NCBI GenBank assembly: GCA_043821645.1
Contig: JBDRCO010000023.1
Location: 128,001 to 192,000 of the forward strand
Direction of reading: 5' to 3'
DNA: 64,000 nucleotides
From: Pseudomonadota bacterium
GTDB taxonomy: Bacteria; Myxococcota; JACRCW01; JAFGSX01
Shown here piece after piece: positions 8,921-32,657 of this stretch (position 1 is its first letter; every line of letters begins with the position of its first letter). The notes below the pieces were generated by a model. That model did no database searches and was not told the origin of the DNA. It saw nothing but the letters and a program-made list of their open reading frames with translations. Made by a program: the position numbers and the translations under genes.

Positions 8921-11236
8921 CTAGTACTGGGCCTCGCGCAGCCTCAGCAGCATCAGGTTCATGGTGCTGTTCACCTTGACCAGCTTGGCGGGATCGCTGC
9001 CCGCAGCCCGGTACTCCAGCAACATGCTGCGCAGCTGTGCCTCGAGCCCCTTGAACAACTCCGAGCTATCGTCGAGCCTGGGGCGAATCCGGTAGTAGGA
9101 CGTCTGCACGCGGTTGAGTTTGTTGTTGATGAAGGTCTTGCGGAAGGTGAAGCCGTCGATCTTGCCCTTGAGCCGGCCTACCAGCTCGCGGCGAACGCCA
9201 TCGTCGGTGTTTGGATTCTTGGCGGCCTTGTACTCCTCCGGCCACAGATCCACCGCGTCGTCTGGCAACAGGCCCTTGCTCCCGAGCGCCCGGTCGAGCT
9301 CGCGGATCATGTTGGTCGCGGCGGCGCTCAGCTCGTTGCTCCTGGCCGGCCTGGGCACCGCAGGAGGCTTCACGGGCTTGGGATCGACGACAGGCGGTGC
9401 CACCGTGGTCACCGGGGGGGGCTTGACCGGCGGAGGCCGTACAGGGTCCGCCCGGGGTGGTTTCTTGGGCTGTCTCGGGTGGCCGGGTGTGGTGCCCGGC
9501 GGCGGCTTGACCGGGTTGTCGACCCGCGCCTGAGGCGGGGTGTCCCTTTCAGGCCGCGGCGGCTTGTCGACGCGTGGCTTGCGGGGTGGAGGATCGAGAT
9601 CGTCCTCTCCGCTGGCTGCCTGCGCAAGTTCAGGTATCCCGGCGTCCGCGCTCGCCGGCGTGTCCGCCGCTGCCAGGACGACCGTGTCGGTCGTGTTCCC
9701 GGGTTGCGAATCCGGCCCACCCAGCATGGCCCAGAGCAGGACCACTCCCAGCAGCGCACCGCTCGCCGCCACACCGCCGAGGACCAGCAAGCGCGGCCTG
9801 GCCCGTCCCGCGAACATGGAGCGCTCGGCCTCGTCGCGTCCGTGCTGCGACCCCTGGGCTGCGATGGCTTGCGCTGCCGGGTGGCCAGTCTTCTGCACCT
9901 CCCTGGGCATCCGGTCTCCGCCCACCGCGGGCGCGGGCAGGGGGTGCTCACCAGTGCGCGGCACAATGAAGGTCTGCTCGCCGTGAATGGCGGCTGCCGG
10001 CCGGATGGCGGGCACCTCCGCCGGGAGAGCGATGGGCGCTGCAAACTCAACTTTCGCCGGTGTGGCTGCGGGCAAGGGGGCCGTGGGCTCGCGCGGGTCC
10101 ACAGGCTCCGGGATCGCCGGCGTGTCCTCCCCGACCGCGGTGCGGACAGCGGTCGCTGCCTCGAATACCGCTGCAGGACCGTCGGACATCAAGGTTGATT
10201 CCGGGACGGCCGCGGTCGGATCTGCCAGGCTGACGGAGTGCGTGGACTCGTCGGTGGACAGATCGAAGGGAGCCATGCGTCCGAGCTGCTGCATGAACTC
10301 CTTCTCGAGTTTGAGATCCACCTCGAACAGGTCGGCCAGCAGGCCCACCAGCTCCTGTCGTGCCTGCTCGTGCGTCCAGTGCGACTGTGCTCTGAGGTCC
10401 GCAAGCAGGGCCGCAGCGTCGGGGTAGCGGTCGTCGGGCTGCACCGCCAGGGCGCGCTCGACCACTGGCACCATGGCCGGCGGCAGGCGCTCGCGACGGA
10501 CGCCCTCGAGAGCCTGGCCGCGGGCGACAATGGACCACAGCTGGTTGGGATCCACGTCGTCATAGAGGCGGCGACCGCTGAGCAACTCGTACAGCATCAC
10601 CCCCGCGGCGAACAGATCGACGCGGTGATCGATGTCGTGCCCGCGGGCTTGCTCGGGAGCCATGTAGCGAAGCTTGCCCAGCACCATGCCGGGCTCGGTC
10701 GCGGTGGTGCGCGCCGCGAAGCGCGCCAGGCCGAAATCGATGAGCCGCACGTCGCCCTGCCAGCTCACCATGAGGTTCTGCGGACTGACATCGCGGTGGA
10801 TCAGGTTGAGAGTGGCGCCGCTCAGGTCCCTGGCCTGGTGCAGGTAGCCCAGGGCGTCGAGCAGCTCACCCACGACGTAGTAGGCGATCTCGGGAGGGAT
10901 CTGTCGTTCGAGGTCGCGCGCGCGCTCCAGGACGCTCCGGGCATCGCGGCCAGAGATGTACTCGAGCTCGAGGAAGTAGGTGCCCTCGGCAAAGCCGATA
11001 TCGAACACCTTGTTGATGACCGGGTGCTTGAGCACGATGGCAACGCGCGCCTCGTCGAGGAAGCGCGTCACGTATTCCTCGTCGCGGGTCAGGTCCTGGC
11101 GCAGGGTCTTGAGCGCGACGTAGCGCTGCTCCCCGGCCACCGCGGCCTTCTGGCCAAGGAAGATCTCGCCCATGCCGCCGCGCGCCAGGCGCTCCAGCAG
11201 CATGTAGTTTCCGAACCGTCTGGGCAGCGTGGACAC
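8921..11236 (-). CDS. Membrane Ser/Thr protein kinase (Hanks type)
   Basis: GGMG, VALK, HRDVSPQN, DFG and APE motifs, followed by a TM segment, Pro-rich linker and helical C-terminal domain. Confidence 0.95.
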   Translation of the reverse strand: MSTLPRRFGNYMLLERLARGGMGEIFLGQKAAVAGEQRYVALKTLRQDLTRDEEYVTRFLDEARVAIVLKHPVINKVFDIGFAEGTYFLELEYISGRDARSVLERARDLERQIPPEIAYYVVGELLDALGYLHQARDLSGATLNLIHRDVSPQNLMVSWQGDVRLIDFGLARFAARTTATEPGMVLGKLRYMAPEQARGHDIDHRVDLFAAGVMLYELLSGRRLYDDVDPNQLWSIVARGQALEGVRRERLPPAMVPVVERALAVQPDDRYPDAAALLADLRAQSHWTHEQARQELVGLLADLFEVDLKLEKEFMQQLGRMAPFDLSTDESTHSVSLADPTAAVPESTLMSDGPAAVFEAATAVRTAVGEDTPAIPEPVDPREPTAPLPAATPAKVEFAAPIALPAEVPAIRPAAAIHGEQTFIVPRTGEHPLPAPAVGGDRMPREVQKTGHPAAQAIAAQGSQHGRDEAERSMFAGRARPRLLVLGGVAASGALLGVVLLWAMLGGPDSQPGNTTDTVVLAAADTPASADAGIPELAQAASGEDDLDPPPRKPRVDKPPRPERDTPPQARVDNPVKPPPGTTPGHPRQPKKPPRADPVRPPPVKPPPVTTVAPPVVDPKPVKPPAVPRPARSNELSAAATNMIRELDRALGSKGLLPDDAVDLWPEEYKAAKNPNTDDGVRRELVGRLKGKIDGFTFRKTFINNKLNRVQTSYYRIRPRLDDSSELFKGLEAQLRSMLLEYRAAGSDPAKLVKVNSTMNLMLLRLREAQY

Positions 11237-11253
11237 GTGCGCCTGTCACCACC

Positions 11254-13056
11254 TCAGCGGGTGCTGATCGGTCCGGCGCTCACGACCTCGAACGCCTCGA
11301 CCGGTTCCGCCTTGCCCTTGAGCGGTATCGCACCGCGCGGTTGTATCAGGAACTGCCCTTGCACCAGCTCCATGGTGCGCGGACCGATCAGGATCTGGCC
11401 GGGTTCGGCGGCCTCCTCGAGCCGGGCCGCGACGTTGACCGCGTCGCCCAGCGCCGTGTATTCGAGTCGCATGCGGGAGCCGATGAGGCCGGCCACCACG
11501 GGACCGGTGTTGAGCCCGATGCGAAGTCGCAGCCGCTCGGCAGGTGGCCGCTCTGCAATCACGGCATTGAAAGCCGAGCGCATGGCCAGGGCGCAAGCCA
11601 CAGCCCGCTCGGCATCGTTGTCGCCGGGGAAGGGTGCGCCGAACAGCGCCATGACGGCGTCGCCGATGTACTTGTCGACCGTGCCGCGGTGCTGGAACAC
11701 GACCTCGGTCATTCGCGCCAGGTAGGCATTGAGCAGGTCCGCGACGCGCGAGGGCGGGTGGCGCTCCGCGAACGCGGTGAAGGAACTGAGGTCGCAGAAC
11801 AGCACCGTGGCTTCGAGCGGTTCGAGAAAGGGCTCCAGTCCGCCGGAGGAATCGGAGCCGCGGTTGAGCATGATCTTCTCGACCACCTCGGGCGTATGAA
11901 AGCGCTCGAGGGCTGACCGCAGCGAGGCCTCGGCCTGAACCTGTTCGCGCAGCCTGGACTGCTCGATGCCCAGGCCCACCAGGTGTCCCAGGGCGCCGAC
12001 CAGGTCATTCTCGGGAGGCAGGAAGGGGCGCTCGCGGGTCAGGTAGATGGCGCCCTCGGCGGCCTCGTCCCGCAGCAGGGGCACGCACAGCACCGCCTTG
12101 AGATCCAGGCGCATCACGCTCTCGCCGCTCGCGAAGCGCATGTCCGAGGCTGCGTTGGCCGCCACCACCGCCGAGCGATCGCGCACAGCGCGCTCGACCA
12201 CCGTCTGCGACAGGTGCAGGGAGCGGATGCGCTTGGCCAGCCGGACCACCCGTGGCTTCATCTCGCCAAAGGACCCCTCGGGAAGCAGCACGGCGACACC
12301 CTGGGACTGGGTGGCGTTGAGCAGGGCGTCGGCGATCTTGCCCAGGAAGTCATCGAGGGTGAGCGCCAGATGCGACTCCGCCATGACCCGGTACAGCAAG
12401 CTCAGGGCCAGGGTCTCGATGGACTCGGCGGTGGGCTGGCGGTCCAGGGTCATCGCCACGGACTTGAAGTCGCCGACCTCGCTGATGTCGACCTTGCCGC
12501 TGGAACGCGAACGCAGGTGCTGCACCAGCGGATTGCTGGCAATGGGCGTCAACCGCAGGCGCTCGGCGTCCACCTTGGGGTCGGGCTCCCAGCTCCACGC
12601 CAGATCCTTGCTGATCTGGGCCGGGACGACCGGAGCGCGCGCGCGGAGCGGATCCGTGAAATCGAGGGTGAGATCATCCTCGGCGAAATCATCGGTGATG
12701 ACGGGCAGGCTGGCGTCGACAGGCTCGGCCTTGCGGCGGTCGGGCAAGAAGCTCAGGGTCCACTCCCCGGCCTGCACCTTCTCGCCACCGTTGAGCACGA
12801 TCTCGCTGATGCGCTTGCCGTCGAAATGCGTGCCGTTATGACTCTGCAGGTCAGAGATCTTCAGCTGCTCCTCGCCCTCGGCGGCGATGCTGAAGTGGCG
12901 GCGGGAGATCTTGCGCCCCTCGAGACAGATGTCGCAGGTAGGATCCCGCCCCACCAGGGAGGGACGCGACAGGATGAACTCTCGCGTTCGCCCACCTGGC
13001 CCCTCGGCCATCACGCGCCACTTGCGGAGGAGCTGCTGTCCCGCCTCTGCGCTCAA
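11254..13056 (-). CDS. FHA-GAF-class III adenylate/guanylate cyclase
   Basis: FHA (GRD...SRRH...SHNGT), GAF (LCVPL) and cyclase (FCDLSSFT, DKYIGD, GDAVNVAARLE) motifs. Confidence 0.93.
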   Translation of the reverse strand: MSAEAGQQLLRKWRVMAEGPGGRTREFILSRPSLVGRDPTCDICLEGRKISRRHFSIAAEGEEQLKISDLQSHNGTHFDGKRISEIVLNGGEKVQAGEWTLSFLPDRRKAEPVDASLPVITDDFAEDDLTLDFTDPLRARAPVVPAQISKDLAWSWEPDPKVDAERLRLTPIASNPLVQHLRSRSSGKVDISEVGDFKSVAMTLDRQPTAESIETLALSLLYRVMAESHLALTLDDFLGKIADALLNATQSQGVAVLLPEGSFGEMKPRVVRLAKRIRSLHLSQTVVERAVRDRSAVVAANAASDMRFASGESVMRLDLKAVLCVPLLRDEAAEGAIYLTRERPFLPPENDLVGALGHLVGLGIEQSRLREQVQAEASLRSALERFHTPEVVEKIMLNRGSDSSGGLEPFLEPLEATVLFCDLSSFTAFAERHPPSRVADLLNAYLARMTEVVFQHRGTVDKYIGDAVMALFGAPFPGDNDAERAVACALAMRSAFNAVIAERPPAERLRLRIGLNTGPVVAGLIGSRMRLEYTALGDAVNVAARLEEAAEPGQILIGPRTMELVQGQFLIQPRGAIPLKGKAEPVEAFEVVSAGPISTR

Positions 13057-13309
13057 TTCAAACTCCCTGCCCCCTTGGCAATCGCGACTTTGCTCCCTTA
13101 TATCGCATTATCGCCAGAGCATGCGCCCGCATGCACTCGCATCGTCTGGCGAGCCGACCCCGAGGCCGCGACAGGTCAAAAACTTGAACAATCTAGACCA
13201 GCTTCGTATCCTAGCCAACATGAAACGGTCGTTCCAGTCTCCGCTCACACACAGCTCGCAGCAGCATGAGGGCCGGAGCAGAGCCTCCAGGTCACCCGGG
13301 CTCCACGGC

Positions 13310-14290
13310 ATGGGCCAAAGCTGGTTGTGGTGGGTTGGCCTGTGCACCGCGGGCGTCCTCCTCGCTGCGGGCTGCCCGGACAAGCGGCCCGAGGAAGAGC
13401 TGACCATCGTCGTACGCGAGGACACCCGGCGCATCGACGAGAAGAAGCAGCAACTCGAGGCCGAGCGCCTGCGCATCTTCGAGGATCAGAAGAAACTCGA
13501 CGAGAGCCTGCAGAAACTCAAGGATGGTTTCGGCGATCAGACAGATGACAAGTCGCGCGAGTTTGTCGACGTCATCAAGCGCTTGCAGGCGGAGAACAGC
13601 AGGCTGTCCAAGCGCCTGGGCGAGGAGATGGTCCAGCACAGCAGCCTGCTCGACCAGCAGAAGCAGCAGGCGACTGGCGGCGGGCGAGTCTCGAGCAGGG
13701 GCGGCGAGAGCAGTGGGGAATGGAAAGCCGAGATCTCCGAGGTCAAGCAGCAGCAGGATGCGCTGTCCAGAGATCTGGCCTCGGTGCGCGTCTCCCTGGG
13801 CGGCATCGATGCCCAGCTCCGGGCCGTGCTCGCCAAGCTGGACAACCTGCCTGCCGGGTCGGCTCCCATGGTCGCAGCGCCGGTCATCTCGTCGGGGAAG
13901 GTGGTTTCCAAGAAAGCCCTGGACAGGGCTAACAAGAAGCTGAGTTCGAGCATGAGCCGCAAGGGCATCCTCGTCATGGACCTACCCGAGGCCTACAGGA
14001 ACCACCCGCGCGACATCCGCAAGGCGCTCAACAGCGGTGACAACGCCATGGCCTACGAGCTGATCTCGCAACAGCAGTCCGTGGTGGACGGCATCGCCAT
14101 CGACAGCGCGTTCATCCAGGCCAAGATGGTCAGGGTCAACAGCCTGGTCGGCGGCAGCCGCCTCAGCGACGAGAAAAAGGCTGCGGCAGCCGACAAGCTC
14201 AAGGACGCGACCTCTGCCTTCTCCGACGGCAAGTACAAGCAGGCCAATCTCCTGATCAATGAGATCGTGGGGCTGATGGGCTCGAGCTGA
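13310..14290 (+). CDS. Coiled-coil lipoprotein, hypothetical
   Basis: MGQSWLWW...LLAAGC lipobox followed by an E/K/Q-rich coiled coil. Confidence 0.75.
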   Translation: MGQSWLWWVGLCTAGVLLAAGCPDKRPEEELTIVVREDTRRIDEKKQQLEAERLRIFEDQKKLDESLQKLKDGFGDQTDDKSREFVDVIKRLQAENSRLSKRLGEEMVQHSSLLDQQKQQATGGGRVSSRGGESSGEWKAEISEVKQQQDALSRDLASVRVSLGGIDAQLRAVLAKLDNLPAGSAPMVAAPVISSGKVVSKKALDRANKKLSSSMSRKGILVMDLPEAYRNHPRDIRKALNSGDNAMAYELISQQQSVVDGIAIDSAFIQAKMVRVNSLVGGSRLSDEKKAAAADKLKDATSAFSDGKYKQANLLINEIVGLMGSS

Positions 14291-15293
14291 GCCTCGAGCG
14301 TTCGGCCTCGCCCCCCTCCAGAAAGATAGATTCCTGAGGAATTTCGGGCAGATCCGTTGGCCAGGGTGCCACAAAGAACTGCGGAGCCACGCCGAGGTCC
14401 GGGTCAAGCTCGAGCGCCCGGGCATGCAGACACTGGCGCGGCCAACCGAGCTCGTCCACGGAGGCGGCGGCCTCGCCCCCTTCAGCCCAGCGCAGAAACC
14501 AGTCCTCGCCCTGCCCGCCGTAGATCTTGTCGCCTACGATGGGGTGACCGATGAGCGACAGGTGTGCCCGGATCTGGTGGGTGCGGCCAGTCCGCGGGTA
14601 GCACGCCACCAGGCTGCGATCGCCCAGCGCAGCCAGGAGGCGGACCTCGGTGCGCGCCGGGGGCGCATCCGGCACGGCCCCCATGCGGATGCGGATGGCT
14701 CCGCCCAGGGGACCCAGCGGGATGTCGATGCGCTGCGGGGTGGCGGACACGCTGCCCTCGACCAGAGCCCAGTAAGTCTTGTGCACCTGGCCGTGGGCGA
14801 AGGCGCGCTTGAGCCGCCGCTCCACGTCGAGAGTGCGCGCCAGTAGCAGCACGCCGCTGGTCTCGCGATCCAGGCGGTGGCAGATCCTCGGCACGACCGC
14901 GTCGGCGGACCCCGCCTGACGCCGGAGCAATTGCGTCAAGGTGGTGCGGAAGTAGCGCGCCGAGGGGTGCACGGCGAGACCCGCGGGTTTGTCGATGACC
15001 AGCAGGTGATCGTCGTCGTGAAGCACCTCGAAGGATTCGGGTGCCGCGGGCTCCTCGGGTGGGGTCCGCCACAGCGACAGGATCTCATCACCCCGCACCC
15101 GGCTCGCGGGTCTGAGAGCACGGCCGTCCCGGCGCAGGTCCCCGTTCTTCACGATGGCCGAGGCGCGGCTTCGCGACAGGCGGCGAATCTTGGTCGCCAG
15201 GAACTGGTCCGCGCGCTGGCCGTCCAGCTGCGGGTCCACGTGCAAGCTTAGGCAGATGCGTGCGTCGTCGGCCATGGCGCCCCGGGGTACCAC
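14256..15293 (-). CDS. RluA/RluD-family pseudouridine synthase
   Basis: S4-like N-terminus, DKPAGL, HRLDRETSG, TGRTHQIR and GDKIYG motifs. Confidence 0.95.
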   Translation of the reverse strand: MVPRGAMADDARICLSLHVDPQLDGQRADQFLATKIRRLSRSRASAIVKNGDLRRDGRALRPASRVRGDEILSLWRTPPEEPAAPESFEVLHDDDHLLVIDKPAGLAVHPSARYFRTTLTQLLRRQAGSADAVVPRICHRLDRETSGVLLLARTLDVERRLKRAFAHGQVHKTYWALVEGSVSATPQRIDIPLGPLGGAIRIRMGAVPDAPPARTEVRLLAALGDRSLVACYPRTGRTHQIRAHLSLIGHPIVGDKIYGGQGEDWFLRWAEGGEAAASVDELGWPRQCLHARALELDPDLGVAPQFFVAPWPTDLPEIPQESIFLEGGEAERSRLSSSPSAPRSH

Positions 15294-19085: not shown

Positions 19086-19676
19086 CTGGTCCTGCATCTG
19101 CACTGCTGCATCGCCTGCGCCCTTGGAGCCTCGGCTGCCCTGGCCGCGTATGTGCCGCTGGCCGCCGTGCCAAGGATCTGGCAGCGCATGGCAGTGGTGA
19201 GCGCGACCTTGCTGGCTGCGCTGGTCCTGGCGCCGACGGGTGCCTACCTCGCTTACCGCTTTCCAGACTGGTACGTGATGTACACCCTGCCCTTGTCGAC
19301 CTGGCCGAGCTGGCAGCAGCTCGCCCTCGGCGCGGCCCCGGCCCTCCTCGCCCCGCTGGCGGCGATGCTCAGTGCCCTGTTGTTGCAGCGGCGGCTGGTC
19401 ACTCTGGCCTGGTCCGTGATGGCCCTGGGTGCAGCTGGCACCGCGGGCATCCTGGTGTGGGGAGGCAATCGTCTGTGGTGGGTGGGAAGCGCAGAGGCCT
19501 TCTCCAGCGAGACCCGCTCGCTCATGCCGCAGCTCGGCGAACACCGCCTGCTGGCGGGCATGATCATCATGCTTGCGGGCCTTGGTGCATGCTGGCTATG
19601 GACGCTGCACACGCTGCGTCGCCAGCGTCGCGCCATGCGTGCCAGCCCCGGGGGAGACACGATAGTCCCTGGTTGA
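19086..19676 (+). CDS. Integral membrane hypothetical protein (probable CTG start)
   Basis: GGAGG at 19075-19079 lies 6 nt before an in-frame CTG. About 5 hydrophobic helices and an APTGAYL..FPDW..MY motif. Confidence 0.65.
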   Translation: MVLHLHCCIACALGASAALAAYVPLAAVPRIWQRMAVVSATLLAALVLAPTGAYLAYRFPDWYVMYTLPLSTWPSWQQLALGAAPALLAPLAAMLSALLLQRRLVTLAWSVMALGAAGTAGILVWGGNRLWWVGSAEAFSSETRSLMPQLGEHRLLAGMIIMLAGLGACWLWTLHTLRRQRRAMRASPGGDTIVPG

Positions 19677-19778
19677 CCAACCGCTCCGGGCAGGATTTTC
19701 TCCCCAGCTACCGACGCCAGAATCGGCCGGCCGGTTCGGGCACCCAGATCGACACCCATCCCTGGCAGGGAGTCCCTG

Positions 19779-20981
19779 ATGAAAGCTGCTTCGAACGTCC
19801 CCCTGTTGCCCGCCCTCAAGCTCATGAGCTCGGACCTCCAGGTCACCGGCAAGGTGGTGTGGGGCCTGGCGATGCGCAAGATCATGCCCTTCTTGATCGA
19901 CCACGAGTTCGTGCGCGACGACAACGCCGAGATCGGGCTGGTCAGCATCAAGCTCACCGACATGTGCAACCTGCGCTGCCGCCCCTGCGCACAGTGGGGC
20001 GAGAACGGCTACAATCTTGGCCTGTCGATCAAGGACCTCAAGAAGAAGGAACTCCCCGCCGACGTGTACGCCAAGCTCGTCGACGACGTGGCGGCCTGGG
20101 GCACCAAGCCGCTATGGTACATCTGGGGCGGCGAGCCCTTCATGCACCGCGAGATCCTCGACATCACGGGATCCATCCGTCGCGCCGGCATGCACGGCGC
20201 CATCGTCACCAATGGCTACAAGGTCAAGGAGTCGGCGCGCACCCTGGTCGAGCAGGGCTGGGACCTGATGTACATGTCCCAGGACGGCACCCACGAGATC
20301 CACCGCGAGAACCGCCCCGGCGCCAACAGCAAGTTCGACAGCTACCAGATGATGCAGGACGGCGTGACCGAGCTGGTCGCCGAGCGCGGGCGCCTGGACA
20401 AGAAGTTCCCGGTGGTGCTGACCCTGACCTGCATCACCAGCATCAACCAGCACGATCTGCTCGAGACCATCCTCGATGCCCAGGCCATGGGCACCGACGC
20501 CATGGTCATGTACCCGGCCTGGTTCACCACCCTCGAGGACGGCCGCAAGCACGAGGCCGAGTTCGAGCGCCGCTTCGGCTTCAAACCTTTCATGTGGAAG
20601 GGCTACGTGGCCGATTGCCACGACGTGGATGTGCCGGCCCTGGTCGAGGAGCTCAAGCGCATCCAGGCCGATCCGCGGGTCAAGATCCCCTGGACGCTGA
20701 TGCCCGACATCTCCTTCGATCAGCTGGAGACCTACTACAAGGACCACGCGGATTTCCTGGGCTACGGCCAGTGCTTCTACCCGTGGACCTACGTCGAGAT
20801 CCAGCCCAACGGCGACGTGTCGACCTGCCGCGACTACGGCGACTACATCTGCGGCAACATCACCGAGGACAGCCTGGCCTCCATCTTCAACAACGAGAAG
20901 TACCAGGCCTTCCGCAAGTCCTTGCGCAAGGACGGCATGATGCCCATCTGTTCGCGCTGCTGCGGTCTGATGGGCTTCTAG
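19779..20981 (+). CDS. Radical SAM enzyme with SPASM/twitch domain
   Basis: CNLRCRPC, GGEP, TNG and C-terminal CFYPW...G.V..C...CGN...CSRCC motifs. Confidence 0.93.
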   Translation: MKAASNVPLLPALKLMSSDLQVTGKVVWGLAMRKIMPFLIDHEFVRDDNAEIGLVSIKLTDMCNLRCRPCAQWGENGYNLGLSIKDLKKKELPADVYAKLVDDVAAWGTKPLWYIWGGEPFMHREILDITGSIRRAGMHGAIVTNGYKVKESARTLVEQGWDLMYMSQDGTHEIHRENRPGANSKFDSYQMMQDGVTELVAERGRLDKKFPVVLTLTCITSINQHDLLETILDAQAMGTDAMVMYPAWFTTLEDGRKHEAEFERRFGFKPFMWKGYVADCHDVDVPALVEELKRIQADPRVKIPWTLMPDISFDQLETYYKDHADFLGYGQCFYPWTYVEIQPNGDVSTCRDYGDYICGNITEDSLASIFNNEKYQAFRKSLRKDGMMPICSRCCGLMGF

Positions 20982-23803: not shown

Positions 23804-23819
23804 TGGCATGAAGCTCGCT
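23804..23819 (+). promoter_or_regulatory. sigma54 (-24/-12) promoter candidate
   Basis: TGGCATGAAGCTCGCT matches the TGGCACG-N4-TTGCW spacing, 41 nt upstream of ATG 23861. Confidence 0.65.
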
Positions 23820-23860
23820 ATACCAGTTCCCGAGCGCGCAACAGCGCTCAGGAGGTCCTG

Positions 23861-26068
23861 ATGAGCCATGCAACATCCACCACCATCGAGATCGTGCACG
23901 TGATGTCCGGCGCCGACATCCTGCGCGCCGGCGAGGTGCAGCTGGCCCTGGGCTTTCCCGAGGAGGTGGTCAAGGCCTGGATGCGCGCGGGTCACAGCCC
24001 CAACGCCTGGCTGGTGCCAGACCGGCGCAGCGCCGACGGAGTGGTGCAGTGGGCCTTCGAGTTTCCGCTGTACTACGCGCTGTTCGTGCAGGGCCTGTTC
24101 ACCCGCGGAGAGAAGATCCCGGTGCTGGTCAAGGAACGCGACTGGACGGACCTGGTCGAATACCTGCGCCTGACCTTGCTCGGGCTCCGTGGCGACGAGA
24201 TGAAGCGCGAAGGCGTGCGCGCCCAGGTGGTGGAGCAGCTGACCCGAGAAGGAGCGGCCATGGCGCTCAAGCGCAGCGATGGCGAGATCGCGGGGATCGA
24301 GGATTTTCTGGAGCCACACTTCTTCGACGCCGAGGGCGTGGTCGAATACCTCGGCCTGCGCGTCAAGGCCCATGGCGACAACGTCTACTCCTACTACACC
24401 GAGGCTGATCGCCTGGAGGAGGTGCTGTTGCAGACGGGAGGGGCCGAGGCGCCGCCCTACAGCACGCCGCTGGCGCCGGCCACGGTACCGGTCATGCCGC
24501 AGCCCTTCGAGGTCATCACCCTGGGTTCATCGTCGGGCTTCGATCCGGCCAACCCCTGCACCAGCGTGCTGGTTCAGGCCCATGGCCGGTTCGTGCTGGT
24601 GGACTGCGGGCCCTACGTGCGAGCCCTGCTCCGCCACGCAGGTGTCAGCTTGCAGCAGATCCAGGCGCTCGTCGTCACCCATGCGCACGAGGATCATGCG
24701 GTGGGGCTGAGCGCCCTGCTCGACCTGACGCACCGCCTGCAGCTGTTCGTGACCCGCGAGACCGCAGCCATCTTGCGCCGCAAGCTGGCCATCCTGAACC
24801 CGCAGGTGAGCCGTCCCGAGCGCCTGCTCGACGACGCCTTTGACCTGGTCTACGTGGAACCGGGCCGGGAGGTGAGTTTTCTCGGACTCACGCTGCGCTT
24901 TCACTACACCATGCACGCCATCCCCTGCACCGGCGTCGAGCTCAGCATGCGAGTCGGCACGGAGATCAAGCGCGTCCTCGTGGTCGGCGACAACAACGCC
25001 CGCGCCAACATCGAGCAAGCCGCGACCCAGGGCGTGATCGATGCTGCCCGTCGCGACGAACTGCTGGCGCTGTACGCGTGGCAGGGTGATCTGCTCATCG
25101 CCGACGCCGGTGGCGGCCTGATTCACGGTGTTCCGGCCGACTTCGCGGGCAATCCATCGAGGGACGTGGTCTGCGTGCATACCGGCGCGCTCAAGCCAGA
25201 AGAAAGACACCTGTATACCCTGGCCGCACCAGGTCTCCGCTACACCCTGGTGTCGGAGCAGCGTGGTCCGACCCCCCTTGAGCGCGGGCTCGCCCATCGC
25301 GCCCTGAACGAGGCTTTCACCCAGAGCGCCTCGGCCTGGCTGGACGCCATGCTCGACGCTGCCGAGCCCCTGAGCGTCAACCGCGGCCAGATCGTGGTGC
25401 GCAACGGCGACAGCGGTCAGGACCTGTACGTCGCCTTGACCGGTGAACTGGCCGTGTTGATCGAGGAAGACGGCACGTCGCGCCAGGTCGCCACCGTGAA
25501 CGCCGGCGAGGTCTTTGGCGAGATGGCGGTCGTCAACAGCGCGCCGCGCTCTGCCACGGTGATGGCTCAGACACCGGCGCGCCTGCTGCGCATCCCGGGG
25601 GAGCTGTTCCACTGCTTCGTGGCCGACGCCAAGCTGACCGGAAGCCTGCCCGAGCTGTGGTCCAAGCGCCACGACCTCGAGCGCGTGACCGTGCTCTCCA
25701 ACGCCTCGGTGACGACCCGCAACCTGCTGGCGCGTGCGGCGGTTCGGCGGCAGGTGGAGCCCGGTGCCACCCTCATTCGCGAGGGTTCCCAGAGCGACAC
25801 GGTGTTCATCCTGGTGCAGGGCCGGGTCCAGGTCTACAAGGGCGCCGCGCCTCTGCTCGCGGGAGGCACGCCCATCATCGTCGAGCCGGGCTCCCTGATC
25901 GGTGAGACCGCGCCCTTTCTCAAGCAAGCGCGCAACGCCAGCATCGTGGCACTCGACGCGTGCGAGGTGCTGGCCATTCGCGGCAGTGACTTCAAGCGCG
26001 TGGTGCAGTGTGCTCCGCAACTGTTCCTGGCCATCTCGCGCGTGGTGCGCTCGCGCCAGGCAGCCTGA
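23861..26068 (+). CDS. MBL-fold metallohydrolase with two cyclic-nucleotide-binding domains (putative cNMP-regulated phosphodiesterase)
   Basis: THAHEDH (HxHxDH), HAIPC and GD motifs. CNB motifs FGEMAV..APRSATV and IGETAP..ARNASI. GGAGG RBS. Confidence 0.88.
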   Translation: MSHATSTTIEIVHVMSGADILRAGEVQLALGFPEEVVKAWMRAGHSPNAWLVPDRRSADGVVQWAFEFPLYYALFVQGLFTRGEKIPVLVKERDWTDLVEYLRLTLLGLRGDEMKREGVRAQVVEQLTREGAAMALKRSDGEIAGIEDFLEPHFFDAEGVVEYLGLRVKAHGDNVYSYYTEADRLEEVLLQTGGAEAPPYSTPLAPATVPVMPQPFEVITLGSSSGFDPANPCTSVLVQAHGRFVLVDCGPYVRALLRHAGVSLQQIQALVVTHAHEDHAVGLSALLDLTHRLQLFVTRETAAILRRKLAILNPQVSRPERLLDDAFDLVYVEPGREVSFLGLTLRFHYTMHAIPCTGVELSMRVGTEIKRVLVVGDNNARANIEQAATQGVIDAARRDELLALYAWQGDLLIADAGGGLIHGVPADFAGNPSRDVVCVHTGALKPEERHLYTLAAPGLRYTLVSEQRGPTPLERGLAHRALNEAFTQSASAWLDAMLDAAEPLSVNRGQIVVRNGDSGQDLYVALTGELAVLIEEDGTSRQVATVNAGEVFGEMAVVNSAPRSATVMAQTPARLLRIPGELFHCFVADAKLTGSLPELWSKRHDLERVTVLSNASVTTRNLLARAAVRRQVEPGATLIREGSQSDTVFILVQGRVQVYKGAAPLLAGGTPIIVEPGSLIGETAPFLKQARNASIVALDACEVLAIRGSDFKRVVQCAPQLFLAISRVVRSRQAA

Positions 26069-26100
26069 CGCCCGTCCAGATCAGCCCCGGGAGGTCCTCC

Positions 26101-27327
26101 ATGCAAACCGTGACCGCCGAACACGCCCTGGCTGTGACCACACAGGTCCAGATCCCGGGCGACGGAGAGGTGCTGCTACGCTGGCAGGCCTCGGGCTCGC
26201 CGTCCTCTTTGTGCGTGCTCATCATCCGCAGCGGCGCGGTGCCTGCTTACACCTCGATCGGTCTCACCGCGCAGAACACGTGTTACCACCTGCGCAACCT
26301 GAGCCGGCATCAGCGCTACATGGTTGCGGTGGCGGCCCTGGGTGGTGGACAGGTGGCTCTCAGTACCTGGACCTCGGTGACACCGCGCGCAGGCCTGCAC
26401 GCCCTGTGCAGCGACGACGGAAACGCTCTGACGCCACACCTCGCGCATGTGACCTCACTCTCCGCCATGCCTCAGGATCGCCGTCTCACCGCCTACTGGA
26501 AACTCTCGAGGGGCTTCGTCGACGGAGTGGTGGTCTCGCTGCACAGTGCAGGGCGCTGCCTCCACCGCTTCGAGCTGGAACCCGAAGTGGTCAGCCTGTC
26601 CCTGGACCAGGGTCGAGGTGTGGCGCTGCGCAATGGCGTGGACTACGAACTCCGCGTGCACAGCCGCTTCGCGGGTGTCGACGTACCTGGGCCCGAGGCG
26701 GTGACCTGCACACCCGCGGCCCAGGGTGAGGAGCGACAGGCGAACCGGAAGCACCCGCAGGCGAACCTGTTTTTCCCCTTTCTCTCCATCGACGCGGAGC
26801 TCAAGGTCTTCGACGACGACGGTTCCGATGAGGCCACGGCGCCGGCTCCTTTGCTGTGCCAGCACTGCCGCAAGCCTGTCTCCTGGGAGCGCTACGAACT
26901 GCGCTGCGTGGGCTGTGGTGCCGAGTACATCCCCAACAGCCTGGGCTCGGTCCTGGAGGTGCGCCGTCTGCGCTTTGGCACCTGCGCCTGTTGCTTGCCG
27001 CGGAGCATCCTGATCCAGAAGCGCGGCAGCACATCACTGACCTGCGCACAGTCCGGCAAGGAACACATCCGTACAGGCAGCGCGGGCTTTTCTCTCATCG
27101 AGGATCTCCCCCACGGCCTGTGCCAGTGCTGCCGGCCGCGCAGGCCCTTGCAGCGCAAGAGTGGAAAGGTGACCTGCAGCAAGACCGGCGAGCCGCACAG
27201 CAACCAGGACGGACGCTATGTGTTGGCGCCGACCCAGCCCGTCTTCGACGCTGCAGCCATCGACGCACTGCTCGATCAGGGGCTGGCGGAGATCTGCTCG
27301 ACGGGTGTCACGCGCGGTCGCCGCTGA
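26101..27327 (+). CDS. FnIII-like domain protein with Cys-rich Zn-binding tail
   Basis: Two FnIII-like segments (LRW...NL....Y.V.VAA and AYW...L.NGVDY.LRV), then CxxC-CxxC and two CxCC...C modules. GGAGG RBS and no signal peptide. Confidence 0.75.
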   Translation: MQTVTAEHALAVTTQVQIPGDGEVLLRWQASGSPSSLCVLIIRSGAVPAYTSIGLTAQNTCYHLRNLSRHQRYMVAVAALGGGQVALSTWTSVTPRAGLHALCSDDGNALTPHLAHVTSLSAMPQDRRLTAYWKLSRGFVDGVVVSLHSAGRCLHRFELEPEVVSLSLDQGRGVALRNGVDYELRVHSRFAGVDVPGPEAVTCTPAAQGEERQANRKHPQANLFFPFLSIDAELKVFDDDGSDEATAPAPLLCQHCRKPVSWERYELRCVGCGAEYIPNSLGSVLEVRRLRFGTCACCLPRSILIQKRGSTSLTCAQSGKEHIRTGSAGFSLIEDLPHGLCQCCRPRRPLQRKSGKVTCSKTGEPHSNQDGRYVLAPTQPVFDAAAIDALLDQGLAEICSTGVTRGRR

Positions 27328-27340
27328 ACAGCGCGGGGAG

Positions 27341-28849
27341 CTAAATGGGAGGAGGCAGGATGGGGAGGTCGAGTCGCCGGCGCTCGCTCCGCGCCACCGA
27401 GGCCTTGAGCGAGAAGTCTTGCTCGACCACCAGCTCGAGCTGGAGCGGGCCTGGGTTCTGCTGCAACCAGTCCGCCGGCACGCGAAGCAGGCCGACCAGC
27501 TCACGCTCGACGCTGTGCAGCTCGACAGCCTGGATCAGCCCCATCACCAGGTCCTGACCACGGGCCACCGGGGGGGATACGCTGGTGCCACGGCGGCAGG
27601 GCACACCCGTGTTTCGCGGTATGACCTCGTGCATGGCCCCACCTGGCAGCACCACGCCGATGGGTATCGAGACCACGTCGACCAGGTCAGGCCCAGCGGG
27701 CAGATCCATGGAGTGACCGAGGATGGCCGCACCGACGGCCACCGCGAGCTCGGGGTTGATGGCCTTCGTGGGATCGTTCTTGAACGCTGCAGACAGGCGG
27801 CGCTTGAGGGGCAGCATGCGCGTCTGGCCACCCACGAAGACCAGCTCATCCACGTCGTCACGCGTCATCCCGGCGTGCTTGAGCGCCTCGTCACAGGCGC
27901 CCAGGGTCCGCTCGATGAGGTTGGAAGTCAGGGTCTCCAGCGCATCGCGGATCAGCGTGTACTCGAAGTCCACGAACTGGCCATCAGCGCCGCTGCACAC
28001 GAAGGGGACGCGCAGCGTGGTCTCCTCCTGTGTCGACAGCGCGATCTTGGCGGCCTCGGCGGCCAGGAACACACGCTGCATGACCACCTTGTTGGACTGC
28101 ACATCCAGACCGCGAGCGACCTCGAAGCGCTCGATGAGCCTGCGACCTATCTGCTCGTCGAAGTCAGCGCCGCCCAGGAACGCGTCCCCACCTGTGGCGA
28201 GCACGCTGGCCAGGGCGCCGCGCACGGCCACCACGCTGACATCGAAGGTGCCACCTCCCAGATCGTAGATGAGCAGGGTTTGCTCTATTCCGCGCTTCTT
28301 GGCGGCGAACAGGGCAGCAGCGGTGGGCTCATTCACCAGGGCGCGGACCCGCAACCCCGCATCGCTGGCAGCTCGCGCCAGCTCTCGACGCTGGGTATAG
28401 CCGTAGTGCGCCGGCACCGTCAGCACGCAGTCCTCGAAGGGCGCGCCAGCGGCGGCCTGGGCCAGCTCGGCGATGCGGCGCAGCACCAGCGTGGCCACCT
28501 CTCGTAGATGGACCACCTGGCCATAGATCTCCACCGCGCACAGTCCGAGCTCATCTGGGACGAGGGGGTACAGGAAACGCTCGCGATGCCGCTGTACGAA
28601 GCTCGACTTGAGGGAGCGCCCGAGGAACCTTTTGAAGCCGTGGATGGTGTGCGTGGGGTCGTCGATGAGCTGGGTCCGTGCGTTGCTCCCGACGACGTGC
28701 TTGTCGCGTGCGCGGAACCAGACCACGGTGGGCAACACGGCGCTGCGCTCGCTCACAGGGACGACGCGCAAGGTGCGCTTGTGATCGATCCACGCGGCAC
28801 TGGTATTGGTGGTGCCGAAGTCGATACCCAGCACCGGTCGCGGCATCAT
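27341..28849 (-). CDS. Hsp70-family protein (second paralog, short C-terminus)
   Basis: [31 protein letters not shown] and VGGQTR motifs. Confidence 0.93.
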   Translation of the reverse strand: MMPRPVLGIDFGTTNTSAAWIDHKRTLRVVPVSERSAVLPTVVWFRARDKHVVGSNARTQLIDDPTHTIHGFKRFLGRSLKSSFVQRHRERFLYPLVPDELGLCAVEIYGQVVHLREVATLVLRRIAELAQAAAGAPFEDCVLTVPAHYGYTQRRELARAASDAGLRVRALVNEPTAAALFAAKKRGIEQTLLIYDLGGGTFDVSVVAVRGALASVLATGGDAFLGGADFDEQIGRRLIERFEVARGLDVQSNKVVMQRVFLAAEAAKIALSTQEETTLRVPFVCSGADGQFVDFEYTLIRDALETLTSNLIERTLGACDEALKHAGMTRDDVDELVFVGGQTRMLPLKRRLSAAFKNDPTKAINPELAVAVGAAILGHSMDLPAGPDLVDVVSIPIGVVLPGGAMHEVIPRNTGVPCRRGTSVSPPVARGQDLVMGLIQAVELHSVERELVGLLRVPADWLQQNPGPLQLELVVEQDFSLKASVARSERRRLDLPILPPPI

Positions 28850-29065
28850 GGCGGGCTCAAGCTCCCTTCCAGAAACAAGTTCTCCCCGCGACAGCAGCGC
28901 CGGGACACACTCCCCTCCGTCGAGAATCGAACGCAGGGCCAAGGCCCGTCAACGTATTTCCCTCTTTCGGTGCAGCTGCACCCCGCTTCTGATCCACCCT
29001 GGCGCAGAGTGCCCGCAGGAGGCTCCGGTCCACGCGATGGCCCCTGCTTTTTTCTGCAACGGCGC

Positions 29066-29081
29066 TGGCACGACTCTCGCT
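29066..29081 (+). promoter_or_regulatory. sigma54 (-24/-12) promoter candidate
   Basis: TGGCACGACTCTCGCT, with correct GG-N10-GC spacing, upstream of the 29208 operon. Confidence 0.7.
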
Positions 29082-29207
29082 TCACCTGAATGCGAGGACA
29101 GCAGGAGAGCCGACAGCATCGTCGTCCTCCTGGCGAGGCGCCGCGAGTCTGGAGCGCCTGTCCCGCACAGCGCGCGCTCGACCTGGGTCGACGCCGAGGA
29201 GGATGCC

Positions 29208-29546
29208 ATGTCGCAAACCCTGACAACCCTGGAGCCTATGATCGCTGGCCTGGTTCGCGCGATCTGCACGTGCTGCACCGAGGCGCAGCCGTTGACAGGT
29301 CACCCCGACCTCGACGCCACACAGCTTCTCTGTCCCTCGACACGCTTGACCTACCTCGACCGTGGCGACGGCCTGTTCGAGCCCGATGGGGGACAGTTCA
29401 GCGTGACGGTCGTGCCTACCCAGGGAGCCACCGCGCAGACCGGCGCCGAACCCGATGTGCTGAGCGATAGACCGCGACGCACAGGCAGCAAGGTCAGGAT
29501 CGAGCTGGAACGCGCGACCTTTGCTGGTTTCCGCCGCGCGCGCTGA
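29208..29546 (+). CDS. Small CxCC Zn-binding hypothetical protein (112 aa)
   Basis: GAGGAGG RBS and a CTCC-x18-C motif. First gene of the E2-JAB-E1 operon. Confidence 0.75.
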   Translation: MSQTLTTLEPMIAGLVRAICTCCTEAQPLTGHPDLDATQLLCPSTRLTYLDRGDGLFEPDGGQFSVTVVPTQGATAQTGAEPDVLSDRPRRTGSKVRIELERATFAGFRRAR

Positions 29547-29573
29547 AGACCCCATCGGGGTGAGGAGGACGCC

Positions 29574-30284
29574 ATGGCCGACAAGCTGACCCAGCTCTTC
29601 CCGCGCCGCGTCGACGGGCAGATCACACACCGGACCTGGAGCGTGGACCTGGGCACGGCGCTTCACGTCAACGACCTCGGGGATGGCGGTGGGAGCAGAC
29701 TCCATCGTGAGGTGCAAGAGATGGCCGAGCACTTGCCTCGCTGGGTGCTCACCGTCGCCGAGAACAGCCAGCGGATACCCTGCCCCTCCTGTGGCGGCGT
29801 CCTAGTATTCGACCGGGGAATCCGCTGTGCCGAGTGCGAGCGGGCGCTGGCCAGCCGGCAGATCAAGCGCGGCTTCCTGCTGGCATGGTTCGGGCTGATG
29901 CCGCCCATCGGCATTGACGGTCTGGGCCGGCTCAAGGCTGCGGTGATCAAGCGCGCCCCGCCCCAGCACGTCGTCGGACAGCAGGCTGGAATCGGCCACT
30001 TCTTGCTGGTACCCCTGACCGCGATCTACCCGCCGGGTTTTCCGCACCGCCAGGTCAAGGTGGCCTACCTGCCGGGCTTCTTCAGCATGCCGGGTGTCCC
30101 GTCGACAGGCATGCGTCACGACATCCACATGCTGGACCAGGGTTTCATGTGTCTTTTCGCCGGAGGCCAGTGGCAACCCGAGATGAGTTGCCGCGAGGTG
30201 CTGCAGCAGCGCGCCTACGCGCACGTGGTCAAGCTTCTCAATTTCGGCAATGGCAAGAAGAACGCCTTTGCCAAGGTGAGCTGA
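29574..30284 (+). CDS. Prokaryotic E2/UBC-like protein with inserted Zn ribbon
   Basis: RLHREVQEM helix, W.G strand, IYPPGFPH, H-x6-MCLF (putative catalytic Cys) and W.P. The CPSC...CAEC ribbon is an insertion. Confidence 0.75.
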   Translation: MADKLTQLFPRRVDGQITHRTWSVDLGTALHVNDLGDGGGSRLHREVQEMAEHLPRWVLTVAENSQRIPCPSCGGVLVFDRGIRCAECERALASRQIKRGFLLAWFGLMPPIGIDGLGRLKAAVIKRAPPQHVVGQQAGIGHFLLVPLTAIYPPGFPHRQVKVAYLPGFFSMPGVPSTGMRHDIHMLDQGFMCLFAGGQWQPEMSCREVLQQRAYAHVVKLLNFGNGKKNAFAKVS

Positions 30285-31186
30285 TGCGTGCTCTGCCGCG
30301 AATGGAGATCGGGCGCCAGGTGTGGCGGCGCGTGGCGCGCGAACTGGACCGGGTTGCACCCGCCGAAGGGCTGGCCGTGCCCCTGCTCGCGCTGACACCG
30401 CGGGATGTGCAACGCAATCCGTGCACGACACTGCGCCTGGAAGATCTCGAAGTGGTCACCATTGCCCGTGCGGTTCTCGTGCCGCCCGAGCTCCAGCGCA
30501 ACCACCTGATGAGCGTGCGCGCACTGGGCAGTGCTGACGAGCGTGTCAATCGGGAGGTGGTCGGACTCGGACTTCGCTATCCCAGGCTACGGCCCGCTGG
30601 CCACCTTCACTCGCACCCCTTTGCCCGGGGGAACACCTGGCCGTCGAGCGGCCTCAGCGGGGATATCGACGGCCACATGCGGCCCCTGCTGGTGCACAAC
30701 AGCGACGCGGGCGTCGAGGTCAGCTTCAGCTTCATCGCCTGCCGCGATCAAACAGGCCAGAGCTGGGTACTGCAGGCCTTCTCCCTGGATGGCTCCGGGC
30801 AGGTGCACGACCTTGGCCCCTGCCAGGTCGTCGAGGATGAGGCACTGATCGCGCGCGGTCTCTTCACGCCAGGGACGGAGCGTCAGCCCTTGCTGCGAGG
30901 TCTCTGGCAATGCTGGGTCAGGGACCTGAGACGGCAGGGGTGGGCCTGCCGCTGCGCCACGCTCCTCGAAGGCTGGCAACGCTGCATCGTCGAGATGGGT
31001 CAGGGTCTGTGCGCCGTGTTCCTGCTCCCGATCGACTTCCCGGACCGGCCATGCCAGGTCCACGTGGTCATGGCGGGTTCCTCGCGGAGTGAGCGCTTTT
31101 TCACGCCTCACCTGCGGAGTCTGGACACCGATGCCTGGGTGCGGGTCGCCCTGGAAGTGGAGGTTGCCTGCCGTGCCGCAGCATGA
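30284..31186 (+). CDS. JAB/MPN metallopeptidase with C-terminal E2/RWD-like segment
   Basis: N-terminal E, HSHP...PS...D JAMM motif and C-terminal LPIDFPDRP. TGATG coupling with the upstream gene. Confidence 0.8.
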   Translation: MRALPRMEIGRQVWRRVARELDRVAPAEGLAVPLLALTPRDVQRNPCTTLRLEDLEVVTIARAVLVPPELQRNHLMSVRALGSADERVNREVVGLGLRYPRLRPAGHLHSHPFARGNTWPSSGLSGDIDGHMRPLLVHNSDAGVEVSFSFIACRDQTGQSWVLQAFSLDGSGQVHDLGPCQVVEDEALIARGLFTPGTERQPLLRGLWQCWVRDLRRQGWACRCATLLEGWQRCIVEMGQGLCAVFLLPIDFPDRPCQVHVVMAGSSRSERFFTPHLRSLDTDAWVRVALEVEVACRAAA

Positions 31187-32657
31187 CGACTACTTCGCCC
31201 GGGTTCGCCCCCTCCTCGGGGAGGGTCTTGCCAGGATGTGCATCGACGTCGACGACCTGTCCCTGTGCAGCAAGACCATCGCGCTGCTCGGCTCGTGCAT
31301 GCTGGGGTCCGTTCACGTCCGGGACACCCAGGAGGTGGCCAGATGGCCCCTCGTCGAACGGGCGCGATCCCCCTCGCCCGGTGCCGCACTCCCGCGTGCC
31401 ATCGACGTGCTGAAGACCGCTCTGGAGTGGAACAACCCGCAACACGCGGTGCATCTCGACGGAGATCCCGCATCGTCCATCCATCTTCGAGGGCAGCGCA
31501 CCGCAGCCGGGGGGACCTGTGCCGTGCACTGGGACCCCGAGGCTCGACGCTACACCCTGCTCGTTCCGGAAAAGGACACCTGGTCCTGGCACCTGGCCTC
31601 TTACCTGTCTGCCCTGGACCTCCGGGATCACCTTCTAAAAAGGCGAATCCTTCCCCCCGGGACACGTCACCTCGGACATCCATCCTGGCCCTTTGCGCAG
31701 TCCAGCGCGCCCGTGCCGTCGTGGTGGGGACCCCAGCTCCGCACCCAGACAGGCCATGTGATGGTGGTCGGCCTGGGCAGCGTGGGCAGCGAAGTGTTAC
31801 GGACCCTGTCGGGCGCCCCGCTGCGCTTCACCCTGGTCGACGACGGACACGTGAGCGCCTTCAATCTGGTCCGGCAGTGGTTCGGGGCCGAGGAGATCGG
31901 AGAGCACAAGGTCGAGGCGTTGGCCTCGCGCGTCGGTCGAGATCGTTGCCACGCCGTTCCGCTGGCGCTCGGACAGGGCAACCGGGTCCAGTTGCATCAG
32001 CTCCTTGACGAAGACAGACCTGATCTGGTGGTGCTGTCGACGGGAACCCATGATCACAGTGCCCTGGCCGCGGAACTGTGGCGCGCAAAAATTCCGCACG
32101 TGGTGGCCTGTGCCTATCCCCAAGCCCGTTTCTTTGAACTCAACCTGGTCGACCCGGTCGCTGGCACACCCTGCCTGCACTGCTTCCGCGGCCGGCTGTT
32201 CGCCGGACCCGCCAGCGCGCCTGTGGTGGCGGACGAACTATCGCGATTTCTGTATCGCTCCGTCGACGACGCCGAGCGCGATCGGCTGTACACGGACCTC
32301 GTGGCGGAACCTGCTTCGCGCATCGAGACCTCGCGCATCGCGGATCTGGCGGCGCTGGCCGCAGCCGAACTGCTGCTGCCGCGGCAGCTCCGAAGTCCGT
32401 GGGTCGAACGGTGCTTCGACGAGGACACCACCTGCCTGCTCGGTGGCAATACCGTGGCCACCGTCGACTCGGGCGAGGTCGCCTATGGCATCTCCACTCC
32501 CGGGCAGGTGATTCGCCTGGGACTCGATGACGTCGTGGGCAGCGCTGAAATCCAGCACTGCGAGGTATGCGGCCGGACCCTCGAGACCGCACACCGGCTG
32601 CACTGGGACGAGGCTGCTCCCGGGTGCGTCGACGAGGCCCTTCTCGCTGCAGGGTGA
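31173..32657 (+). CDS. E1/ThiF-family adenylyltransferase
   Basis: VVGLGSVGS, LVDDG.V...NLVRQ, K, PCLHC and CEVC motifs. GTG start after GGAGG, overlapping the JAB gene end. Confidence 0.88.
   Translation: MPQHDDYFARVRPLLGEGLARMCIDVDDLSLCSKTIALLGSCMLGSVHVRDTQEVARWPLVERARSPSPGAALPRAIDVLKTALEWNNPQHAVHLDGDPASSIHLRGQRTAAGGTCAVHWDPEARRYTLLVPEKDTWSWHLASYLSALDLRDHLLKRRILPPGTRHLGHPSWPFAQSSAPVPSWWGPQLRTQTGHVMVVGLGSVGSEVLRTLSGAPLRFTLVDDGHVSAFNLVRQWFGAEEIGEHKVEALASRVGRDRCHAVPLALGQGNRVQLHQLLDEDRPDLVVLSTGTHDHSALAAELWRAKIPHVVACAYPQARFFELNLVDPVAGTPCLHCFRGRLFAGPASAPVVADELSRFLYRSVDDAERDRLYTDLVAEPASRIETSRIADLAALAAAELLLPRQLRSPWVERCFDEDTTCLLGGNTVATVDSGEVAYGISTPGQVIRLGLDDVVGSAEIQHCEVCGRTLETAHRLHWDEAAPGCVDEALLAAG

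Follow-up and report, generated by a model that had tools for sequence, protein, structure and literature searches.

The DNA analysed here is a 64,000-nucleotide stretch (the window) of contig JBDRCO010000023.1, assembly GCA_043821645.1, from a bacterium of the Myxococcota, and it carries an E1/E2/JAB cassette that is real and conserved and has not yet been named. Its six genes encode a metallo-beta-lactamase (MBL) protein with domains that bind cyclic nucleoside monophosphates (cNMP), which we call MBL-cNMP, a protein that joins an FnIII-like half to Cys modules (FnZn), a small metal-binding protein (CxCC), and E2-like, JAB-type and E1 proteins. On balance, we favor the view that they form one sigma54-dependent cassette for E1-E2-JAB protein conjugation, in which the conjugated moiety would be CxCC, a putative zinc binder, and not a beta-grasp ubiquitin-like protein (Ubl).

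One cassette, one promoter and a later insertion

The gene order MBLcNMP-FnZn-CxCC-E2-JAB-E1, all on one strand, is kept in 6 of 6 genome loci and 35 of 35 metagenome loci, each locus being judged as far as its contig extends. A preliminary description of the window had proposed a split system of two plus-strand units (23861-27327 and 29208-32657) around an opposite-strand Hsp70 gene, with the motif TGGCAYG-N4-TCGCT before each unit. This arrangement is indeed there, as open reading frames (ORFs), third-position GC and Pfam matches indicate, and the motif has two exact sites, at 23804 and 29066 on the plus strand. The two units do make up one system: FnZn and MBL-cNMP accompany E2, JAB and E1 in every related locus whose contig extends far enough. 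The split and the Hsp70 gene, however, are found in this genome only.

The distance between FnZn and CxCC is 2-120 nucleotides (nt) at each of the 27 other loci spanning the junction, compared to 1883 nt in the window. We therefore conclude that the six genes originally formed a single operon under one promoter, and that Hsp70 is a later insertion. The 1.9-kb insert with the Hsp70 paralog is unique to this genome among the 28 junction-covering loci; none of the other 27 has an Hsp70 gene at this place, which rules it out as a member of the system. The genome has 10 Hsp70-family matches, and the nearest paralog (61% identity) lies on another contig. Both insert junctions are bridged without difference by contigs of sequencing run X1, which is probably the source sample; in runs X2-X4, from two other studies, exact pieces are present and the insert junctions are unbridged. 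There was no RNA run among the runs listed as containing the sequence. The inserted gene belongs to a short subfamily (about 500 aa), copies of which, 54-56% identical, occur in related genomes away from cassettes.

The motif TGGCAYG-N4-TCGCT matches exactly twice in the 64 kb, where 0.02 matches are expected, and two matches were seen in none of 100 shuffles. In each of the 12 loci with an available upstream region, a -24/-12 element that scores 18 or more out of 20 precedes the first cassette gene by 46-73 nt; the background rate of such elements is 0.018 per 250 nt. In the genome, rpoN is present and the activator domain PF00158 is matched 45 times, never on this contig. Together, the -24/-12 spacing and the presence of rpoN and activators support sigma54-type control of the cassette, and the conserved element backs what the preliminary description had said on this point. 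A second element before CxCC occurs in the window only, that is, in 1 of the 28 loci with 250 nt upstream of CxCC, at the same score threshold. Because the split locus alone has it, this argues for selection for co-expression of the two halves, with the downstream half having gained the same promoter type after the split.

Two further observations concern regulation. At one locus only, L007, a GAF - sigma54-interaction - HTH_8 activator is encoded directly 3' of E1 (13300-14817, plus strand) and is a candidate cognate regulator. In addition, 5 of 12 loci (L006, L008, L010, L014 and L034) carry an inverted repeat, GCACC-N5-GGTGC (one mismatch allowed), at a distance of 116-183 nt before the first gene. 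L010 has three copies, and the number expected by chance is 0.066 per 300 nt. The repeat, which the window lacks, may be an activator binding site.

The region has 67% G+C, and ORFs and third-position GC back all seven gene calls in Table 1. With Pfam, MBL-cNMP gave matches to PF12706 (5.1e-12) and PF00753 (3.7e-11) as well as two cNMP_binding stretches (1.4e-35), and at E<=0.01 there were zero family matches for FnZn, CxCC, E2 and JAB. No model in PADLOC, Pfam or NCBIfam classifies the six-gene system. This accords with the earlier claim of a distinct conjugation system, and we did not find it in a previously defined class. PADLOC and NCBIfam add generic domain matches only; those in PADLOC link the cNMP-binding domains to Pycsar effectors (PycTIR, 5.1e-25) and the Rossmann part of E1 to Cap2 models.

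Table 1. Cassette genes, promoter elements and the inserted gene, in window positions
Feature	Position	Strand	Description
Sigma54-type -24/-12 element, TGGCATGAAGCTCGCT	23804..23819	+	Exact pattern match; 57 nt 5' of MBL-cNMP gene
MBL-cNMP	23861-26068	+	735 aa; N-terminal domain (about 1-215), MBL with HxHxDH, two tandem cNMP-binding domains
FnZn	26101-27327	+	408 aa; FnIII-like half, three Cys modules, helical C-terminal stretch
Hsp70 paralog	27341-28849	-	502 aa from MMPRP start; PF00012 1.2e-99
Second sigma54-type element, TGGCACGACTCTCGCT	29066..29081	+	142 nt 5' of CxCC gene
CxCC	29208-29546	+	112 aa; small metal-binding beta domain and invariant tail
E2-like	29574-30284	+	236 aa; UBC/UEV fold with inserted Zn ribbon
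JAB/JAMM-type metallopeptidase	30284-31186	+	300 aa; start overlaps E2 stop codon
E1	~31131-32657	+	About 508 aa, start uncertain; ThiF adenylation domain

Probable conjugation enzymes and the candidate tag

The E2 model is of high confidence (pLDDT 94.2, pTM 0.91) and shows the UBC/UEV alpha-beta fold. In a VIA structural search, all of the 50 matches listed are UBC, UEV, UFC1 or RWD chains. The best of those listed is the UEV of Vps23 (Z 9.2, root-mean-square deviation 4.1, 132 aligned), and the bacterial chains listed include a CdnG-associated E2 (Z 6.9) and BubB (Z 6.8). All 44 close relatives aligned have C193, H182, H185 and W200, and a Zn ribbon (C70, C73, C85 and C88) is inserted in the fold. 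C193 is nearly invariant also in 24 distant relatives; in the model (DSSP assignment) it sits between strands 181-192 and helix 206-225, and we predict it to be the catalytic Cys.

JAB keeps the motif E ... HxH ... S ... D, with E28, H109, S110, H111, S121 and D127 invariant in 26 sequences. Against solved-structure profiles its sole match is BRCC36, over the same motif (E 0.28). The preliminary description had assigned the E2 and JAB labels by inference, and the E2 fold together with the E2 and JAB motifs bears them out.

E1 has a ThiF domain (PF00899, 6.3e-11; 42.3 bits, cut-off 28.1), and its solved-structure matches are TcdA, MccB, MoeB, UBA3, ATG7 and Cap2. The ThiF loop, the Arg-Gln and the Asp motifs are all conserved, with G214, G216, S217, G219, D237, R248, Q249, K260, D298 and C435 invariant, and two Cys pairs (C348 and C351, C477 and C480) are nearly so. 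An N-terminal part of about 200 aa precedes the ThiF domain. An internal duplication, with one inactive and one active adenylation domain, was considered, but a comparison of residues 15-195 with 196-508 lent it no support, as hhalign showed no similarity (probability 0.8%, E 0.066).

The candidate for what these enzymes would conjugate is CxCC; no other small conserved ORF was found within the cassette. In an alignment of 27 sequences, C20, C22, C23, H32 and C42 are followed by an invariant YLDRGDG, then by a linker that varies and last by a tail, SDRPxRTxxKxRIxLERATFA, that is again invariant. Of 36 loci, 20 encode a protein that stops right at ...ATFA, and the proteins of the remaining 16 carry short extensions unrelated to one another, the extension in the window being GFRRAR. 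An invariant motif followed by variable extensions is the pattern of the precursors that JAB peptidases trim in the Bil and Bub pathways (excerpts of PMC11601596 and 10.1101/2023.09.26.559546), and by this analogy CxCC may be a trimmed precursor as well. The CxCC model (pLDDT 68.9) consists of a three-stranded metal-binding domain, itself at pLDDT 84-89, followed by an unstructured linker and tail. A structural search with this model gave no match above Z 3.8.

We also modeled E1 in complex with CxCC 1-106. The median score was 0.66, compared to 0.00 for the best of three controls. Of 80 solved complexes, 58 came up to this mark, as did 2 of 110 mismatched pairs; for our model the calibration is rough, because our own alignments were used. 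Across the runs, at least 13% of contacts agree and the partner pLDDT is at least 48. The confident contacts join the CxCC tail (84-91 and 96-106) to E1 residues 214, 216-219, 303-306, 326-336 and 435, which form the nucleotide loop and its surroundings. CxCC is probably the conjugated tag, the 'missing Ubl' of this cassette.

If so, the pathway might run as follows. JAB would trim the residues past the invariant ...LERATFA, which in this genome are GFRRAR. E1 would then bind the 20-residue tail and adenylate the C-terminal Ala106, after which the tag would move to an E1 cysteine, for which C435 is a candidate, and on to Cys193 of E2. Finally, the tag would be joined to a target protein, a step that JAB could also reverse. 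More specifically, and only tentatively, we propose that CxCC represents a new kind of modifier: a metal-binding module of about 100 residues with a disordered, invariant, Ala-ended tail, made as a JAB-trimmed precursor and tied to cNMP sensing or degradation and to a sigma54 activator.

Read-through occurs at two loci, each a single case that could be either a natural fusion or a sequencing error. In L022 (4060-5085), CxCC reads through into E2 to give 342 aa, and in L019 (4770-7151), JAB reads through into E1 to give 794 aa.

Several points weigh against CxCC conjugation. Foldseek matches of E2 are weak (best E 7e-3, the rows listed all being UBC or UEV), and neither E2 nor JAB is recognized by Pfam, NCBIfam or PADLOC. 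The Cys of the E1 stretch ACAYPQ is Tyr in 3 of 11 sequences (L007, L008 and L019), and the catalytic cysteine of E1 is not established. CxCC as modeled is not a beta-grasp protein, and its predicted unstructured tail ends in Ala, not Gly. Finally, one of the three E1-CxCC runs scored 0.19, the fold of the partner is itself uncertain, and the calibration is rough as stated. To these must be added two points about the MBL-cNMP protein, which we consider below.

FnZn, MBL-cNMP and other possible substrates

The N-terminal half of FnZn is beta-rich and FnIII-like, with weak fn3 leads in the Atlas (score 0.85-0.87), and the protein matches no family in Pfam, NCBIfam or PADLOC. In alignments, it is followed by three Cys modules (CxxC..CxxC, CxCC..C..H and CxCC..C..H) and then by a conserved helical C-terminal stretch. 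The preliminary description had the two units sharing Cys modules. The C-x-CC ... C pattern common to CxCC and FnZn is real, but homology between them is backed weakly, as hhalign of CxCC 12-50 with the second FnZn module (287-323) gave E 0.0027 and a probability of 11%. With two Cys modules patterned like that of the presumed tag, FnZn would be the likeliest adaptor or target.

For the MBL part of MBL-cNMP, the best solved-structure match is Apyc1 (7u2s, 6.1e-5, over about 70 residues), followed by RNase Z and RNase J. The family model PF23023 scores 21.2 bits, below its cut-off of 50; in NCBIfam, NF041851 matches at 1.2e-4, and RNase Z scores higher, at 49.5 bits, which is below its own cut-off. 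All metal ligands are kept, since H274, H276, E277, D278, H279, H348, H352, D377, H422 and H440 are invariant in 12 sequences. The two cNMP-binding (CNB) domains resemble PKA-R and PKG among solved structures, and in the same number of sequences each keeps the Gly-Glu ... Arg-x-Ala motif (G553, E554, R563 and A565; G681, E682, R691 and A693). Structural neighbors in the Atlas combine the N-terminal domain (TM 0.76-0.87) with an Apyc1-like MBL and often with CNB domains, and PF23023 is found in 71-98% of their members. The label 'cNMP hydrolase', judged from sequence, is likely but unproven. The protein could link the tagging pathway to cAMP- or cGMP-type signals, either as a regulated phosphodiesterase or as an effector activated by a nucleotide.

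The C-terminus of MBL-cNMP deserves attention in its own right. At 15 of 15 loci it reads ...R(x)AA with nothing added after it, although the stretch just ahead varies in length by one residue, and this end may be functionally important. This end raises an alternative along the lines of CBASS and of 6A-MBL systems, in which E1 and E2 would conjugate MBL-cNMP itself through its C-terminal Ala and thereby switch its activity, with CxCC and FnZn acting as targets, adaptors or regulators. The unextended end is also the first of the two points against CxCC conjugation that we deferred. The second is that, according to excerpts of PMC11601596, it is the signaling enzyme itself that is conjugated in CBASS, Pycsar and MBL pathways. 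In addition, MBL-cNMP has the highest mean pairwise identity of the five proteins compared (58.5%, versus 44.6-52.0% for FnZn, CxCC, JAB and E1), and the best NCBIfam match of E1 is the 6A-MBL cap2_3 model. However, this match (NF058523) reaches 37.3 bits where the cut-off is 320, and it is confined to the Rossmann stretch. The mark of a processed precursor, variable extensions past an invariant motif, is borne by CxCC and not by the MBL protein, and the model of E1 with the CxCC tail passed its controls. Given this balance, we regard conjugation of MBL-cNMP as unlikely.

A different chemistry can also be imagined for the CxCC C-terminus, in which E1 acts on it as an MccB-like or sulfur-carrier activator, yielding a peptide-nucleotide or a thiocarboxylate, and the E2-like protein is a non-catalytic scaffold. 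MccB, MoeB and ThiF are indeed among the best solved-structure and NCBIfam matches of E1, the long conserved tail of CxCC resembles a recognized peptide substrate, JAB peptidases are paired with sulfur carriers in the CysO/Mec+ system, and a gene for a PALP enzyme adjoins the cassette. The last point falls away on inspection: the enzyme is threonine synthase (255 bits, above cut-off), its gene is a housekeeping neighbor of the one for aspartokinase-homoserine dehydrogenase and the other loci lack it, and we rejected it as a CysM-like partner accordingly. Nor are rhodanese, export or immunity genes among the conserved cassette genes, and a scaffold would not readily account for an E2 Cys193 and flanking His residues that are invariant in 44 of 44 sequences. 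Peptide or cofactor chemistry therefore seems to us quite improbable. That the two units are merely unrelated neighbors with a chance pair of motifs, as the opposite-strand gene between them in this window might suggest, is refuted by the strict synteny in all related loci, and with a motif expectation of 0.02 and a promoter kept in 12 of 12 loci we give it practically no credence.

Kinship with known systems, distribution and meaning

Conjugation of CxCC can be set beside the E1/E2/JAB types found in the literature, which are Type II CBASS and Pycsar, 6A-MBL, 6C/Bil and 6E/Bub (PMC1779556, PMC11601596, 10.1101/2023.09.26.559546, Kaur 2020, a 2026 review and a 2025 preprint, each as far as its available text goes). 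Full-text searches of the literature for the combination turned up no description of the gene set in the text available, and the supplementary tables of papers might list such operons.

Bil (BilABCD, Type I/II) is similar in having separate modifier, E2, JAB and E1 genes in a comparable order and in making trimming by JAB plausible, and the two Cys pairs of the cassette E1 are placed as the structural Zn site of BilD (10.1101/2023.09.26.559546, in part). It differs in its modifier, which is a beta-grasp protein ending in Gly, whereas CxCC models as a small metal-binding domain with a disordered, Ala-ended tail. The cassette also adds MBL-cNMP and FnZn genes and a sigma54-type promoter, and it has no family-model match.

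In 6A-MBL systems (row 6a of Iyer 2006; excerpts of PMC1779556), E1, E2 and JAB are encoded beside an MBL-fold protein, and this pairing of E1/E2/JAB chemistry with an MBL-fold partner is shared by the cassette. There, however, a single fused E2-E1-JAB protein, cap2_3, takes the place of three genes, and the match of the cassette E1 to its model falls as far below the cut-off as given above. The cassette MBL carries in addition an N-terminal domain and two cNMP-binding domains, and two further conserved genes accompany it.

With Type II CBASS and Type II Pycsar, the cassette shares the coupling of a conjugation machine to cyclic-nucleotide signaling, and its cNMP domains match those of Pycsar effectors. 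In contrast to these systems, its E1 and E2 are unfused, and Pfam and PADLOC found no cyclase or CD-NTase among its six proteins. Its nucleotide-binding protein bears a putative Apyc1-like hydrolase, of the signal-degrading kind, and not a TIR or membrane effector.

As for Bub (6E/DUF6527), the BubB chain is among the structural matches of E2 (Z 6.8, see above), and the tag-E2 (L022) and JAB-E1 (L019) read-throughs, each from a single locus, mirror the BubAB and BubCD fusions of Bub pathways (PMC11601596, in part). Unlike Bub, in which the E2 has a catalytic Ser, the cassette E2 keeps Cys, and the cassette shows neither a DUF6527 serine protease (Pfam E<=0.01) nor a recognizable beta-grasp Ubl.

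The cassette is rare in the phylum. A search with E2 returned 94 relatives at 44-76% identity; no Pfam family matches any of them, and 'hypothetical protein' is the only name they bear. Of 41 related genomes, 5 contain the E2. In a sample of 401 genomes from across the phylum it is present in 9, which fall in 8 of 154 genera, and at E<=0.001 only 68 cluster representatives were found among 1.84 billion proteins. A scan of viral contigs for E2 relatives found none. A second E2-like tier was seen among metagenome proteins (P0097-P0156; 19-37% identity, 214-330 aa). This distant tier keeps the Zn ribbon, His185, Cys193 and Trp200, and a Pfam family was assigned to 0 of 30 scanned.

The flanking genes of five genome loci have no neighbor in common, and the neighbors in the window are housekeeping genes, the threonine synthase and aspartokinase-homoserine dehydrogenase mentioned above. 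About 11 kb upstream of the cassette (8921-13056, minus strand), the window encodes a Ser/Thr protein kinase together with an FHA-GAF-class III nucleotide cyclase that might supply cNMP locally. The two genes are not conserved near other loci. At 19152-20981 (plus strand), a 174-aa ORF is followed by a gene for a radical SAM/SPASM enzyme (19779-20981), and the two may be a peptide-maturation pair.

The sparse distribution and the kinship of the parts with defense systems favor a role in conflict. Regulated signaling would agree equally well with a sigma54 promoter, housekeeping neighbors and the lack of E2 relatives among the viral contigs scanned.

Eukaryotic ubiquitination has its closest kin in bacterial operons with E1, E2 and JAB genes, and to our knowledge every family of them characterized so far has revealed something mechanistically new: in CBASS an enzyme is conjugated, in Bil a Ubl is attached to phage tails, and Bub proceeds through oxyester intermediates. 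The present cassette brings together three traits that our literature searches did not show described together, namely a dedicated small tag that does not model as a beta-grasp protein, a conserved partner that senses and probably hydrolyzes cNMP, and a conserved sigma54 promoter. Because it is compact, with six genes, it is directly testable in vitro. The split locus amounts to an experiment of nature, in which an insertion was followed by the re-equipping of the halves with the same promoter type. If CxCC is indeed the conjugated moiety, ubiquitin-type E1/E2 chemistry would not require the beta-grasp fold, not even where a small protein serves as its dedicated tag.

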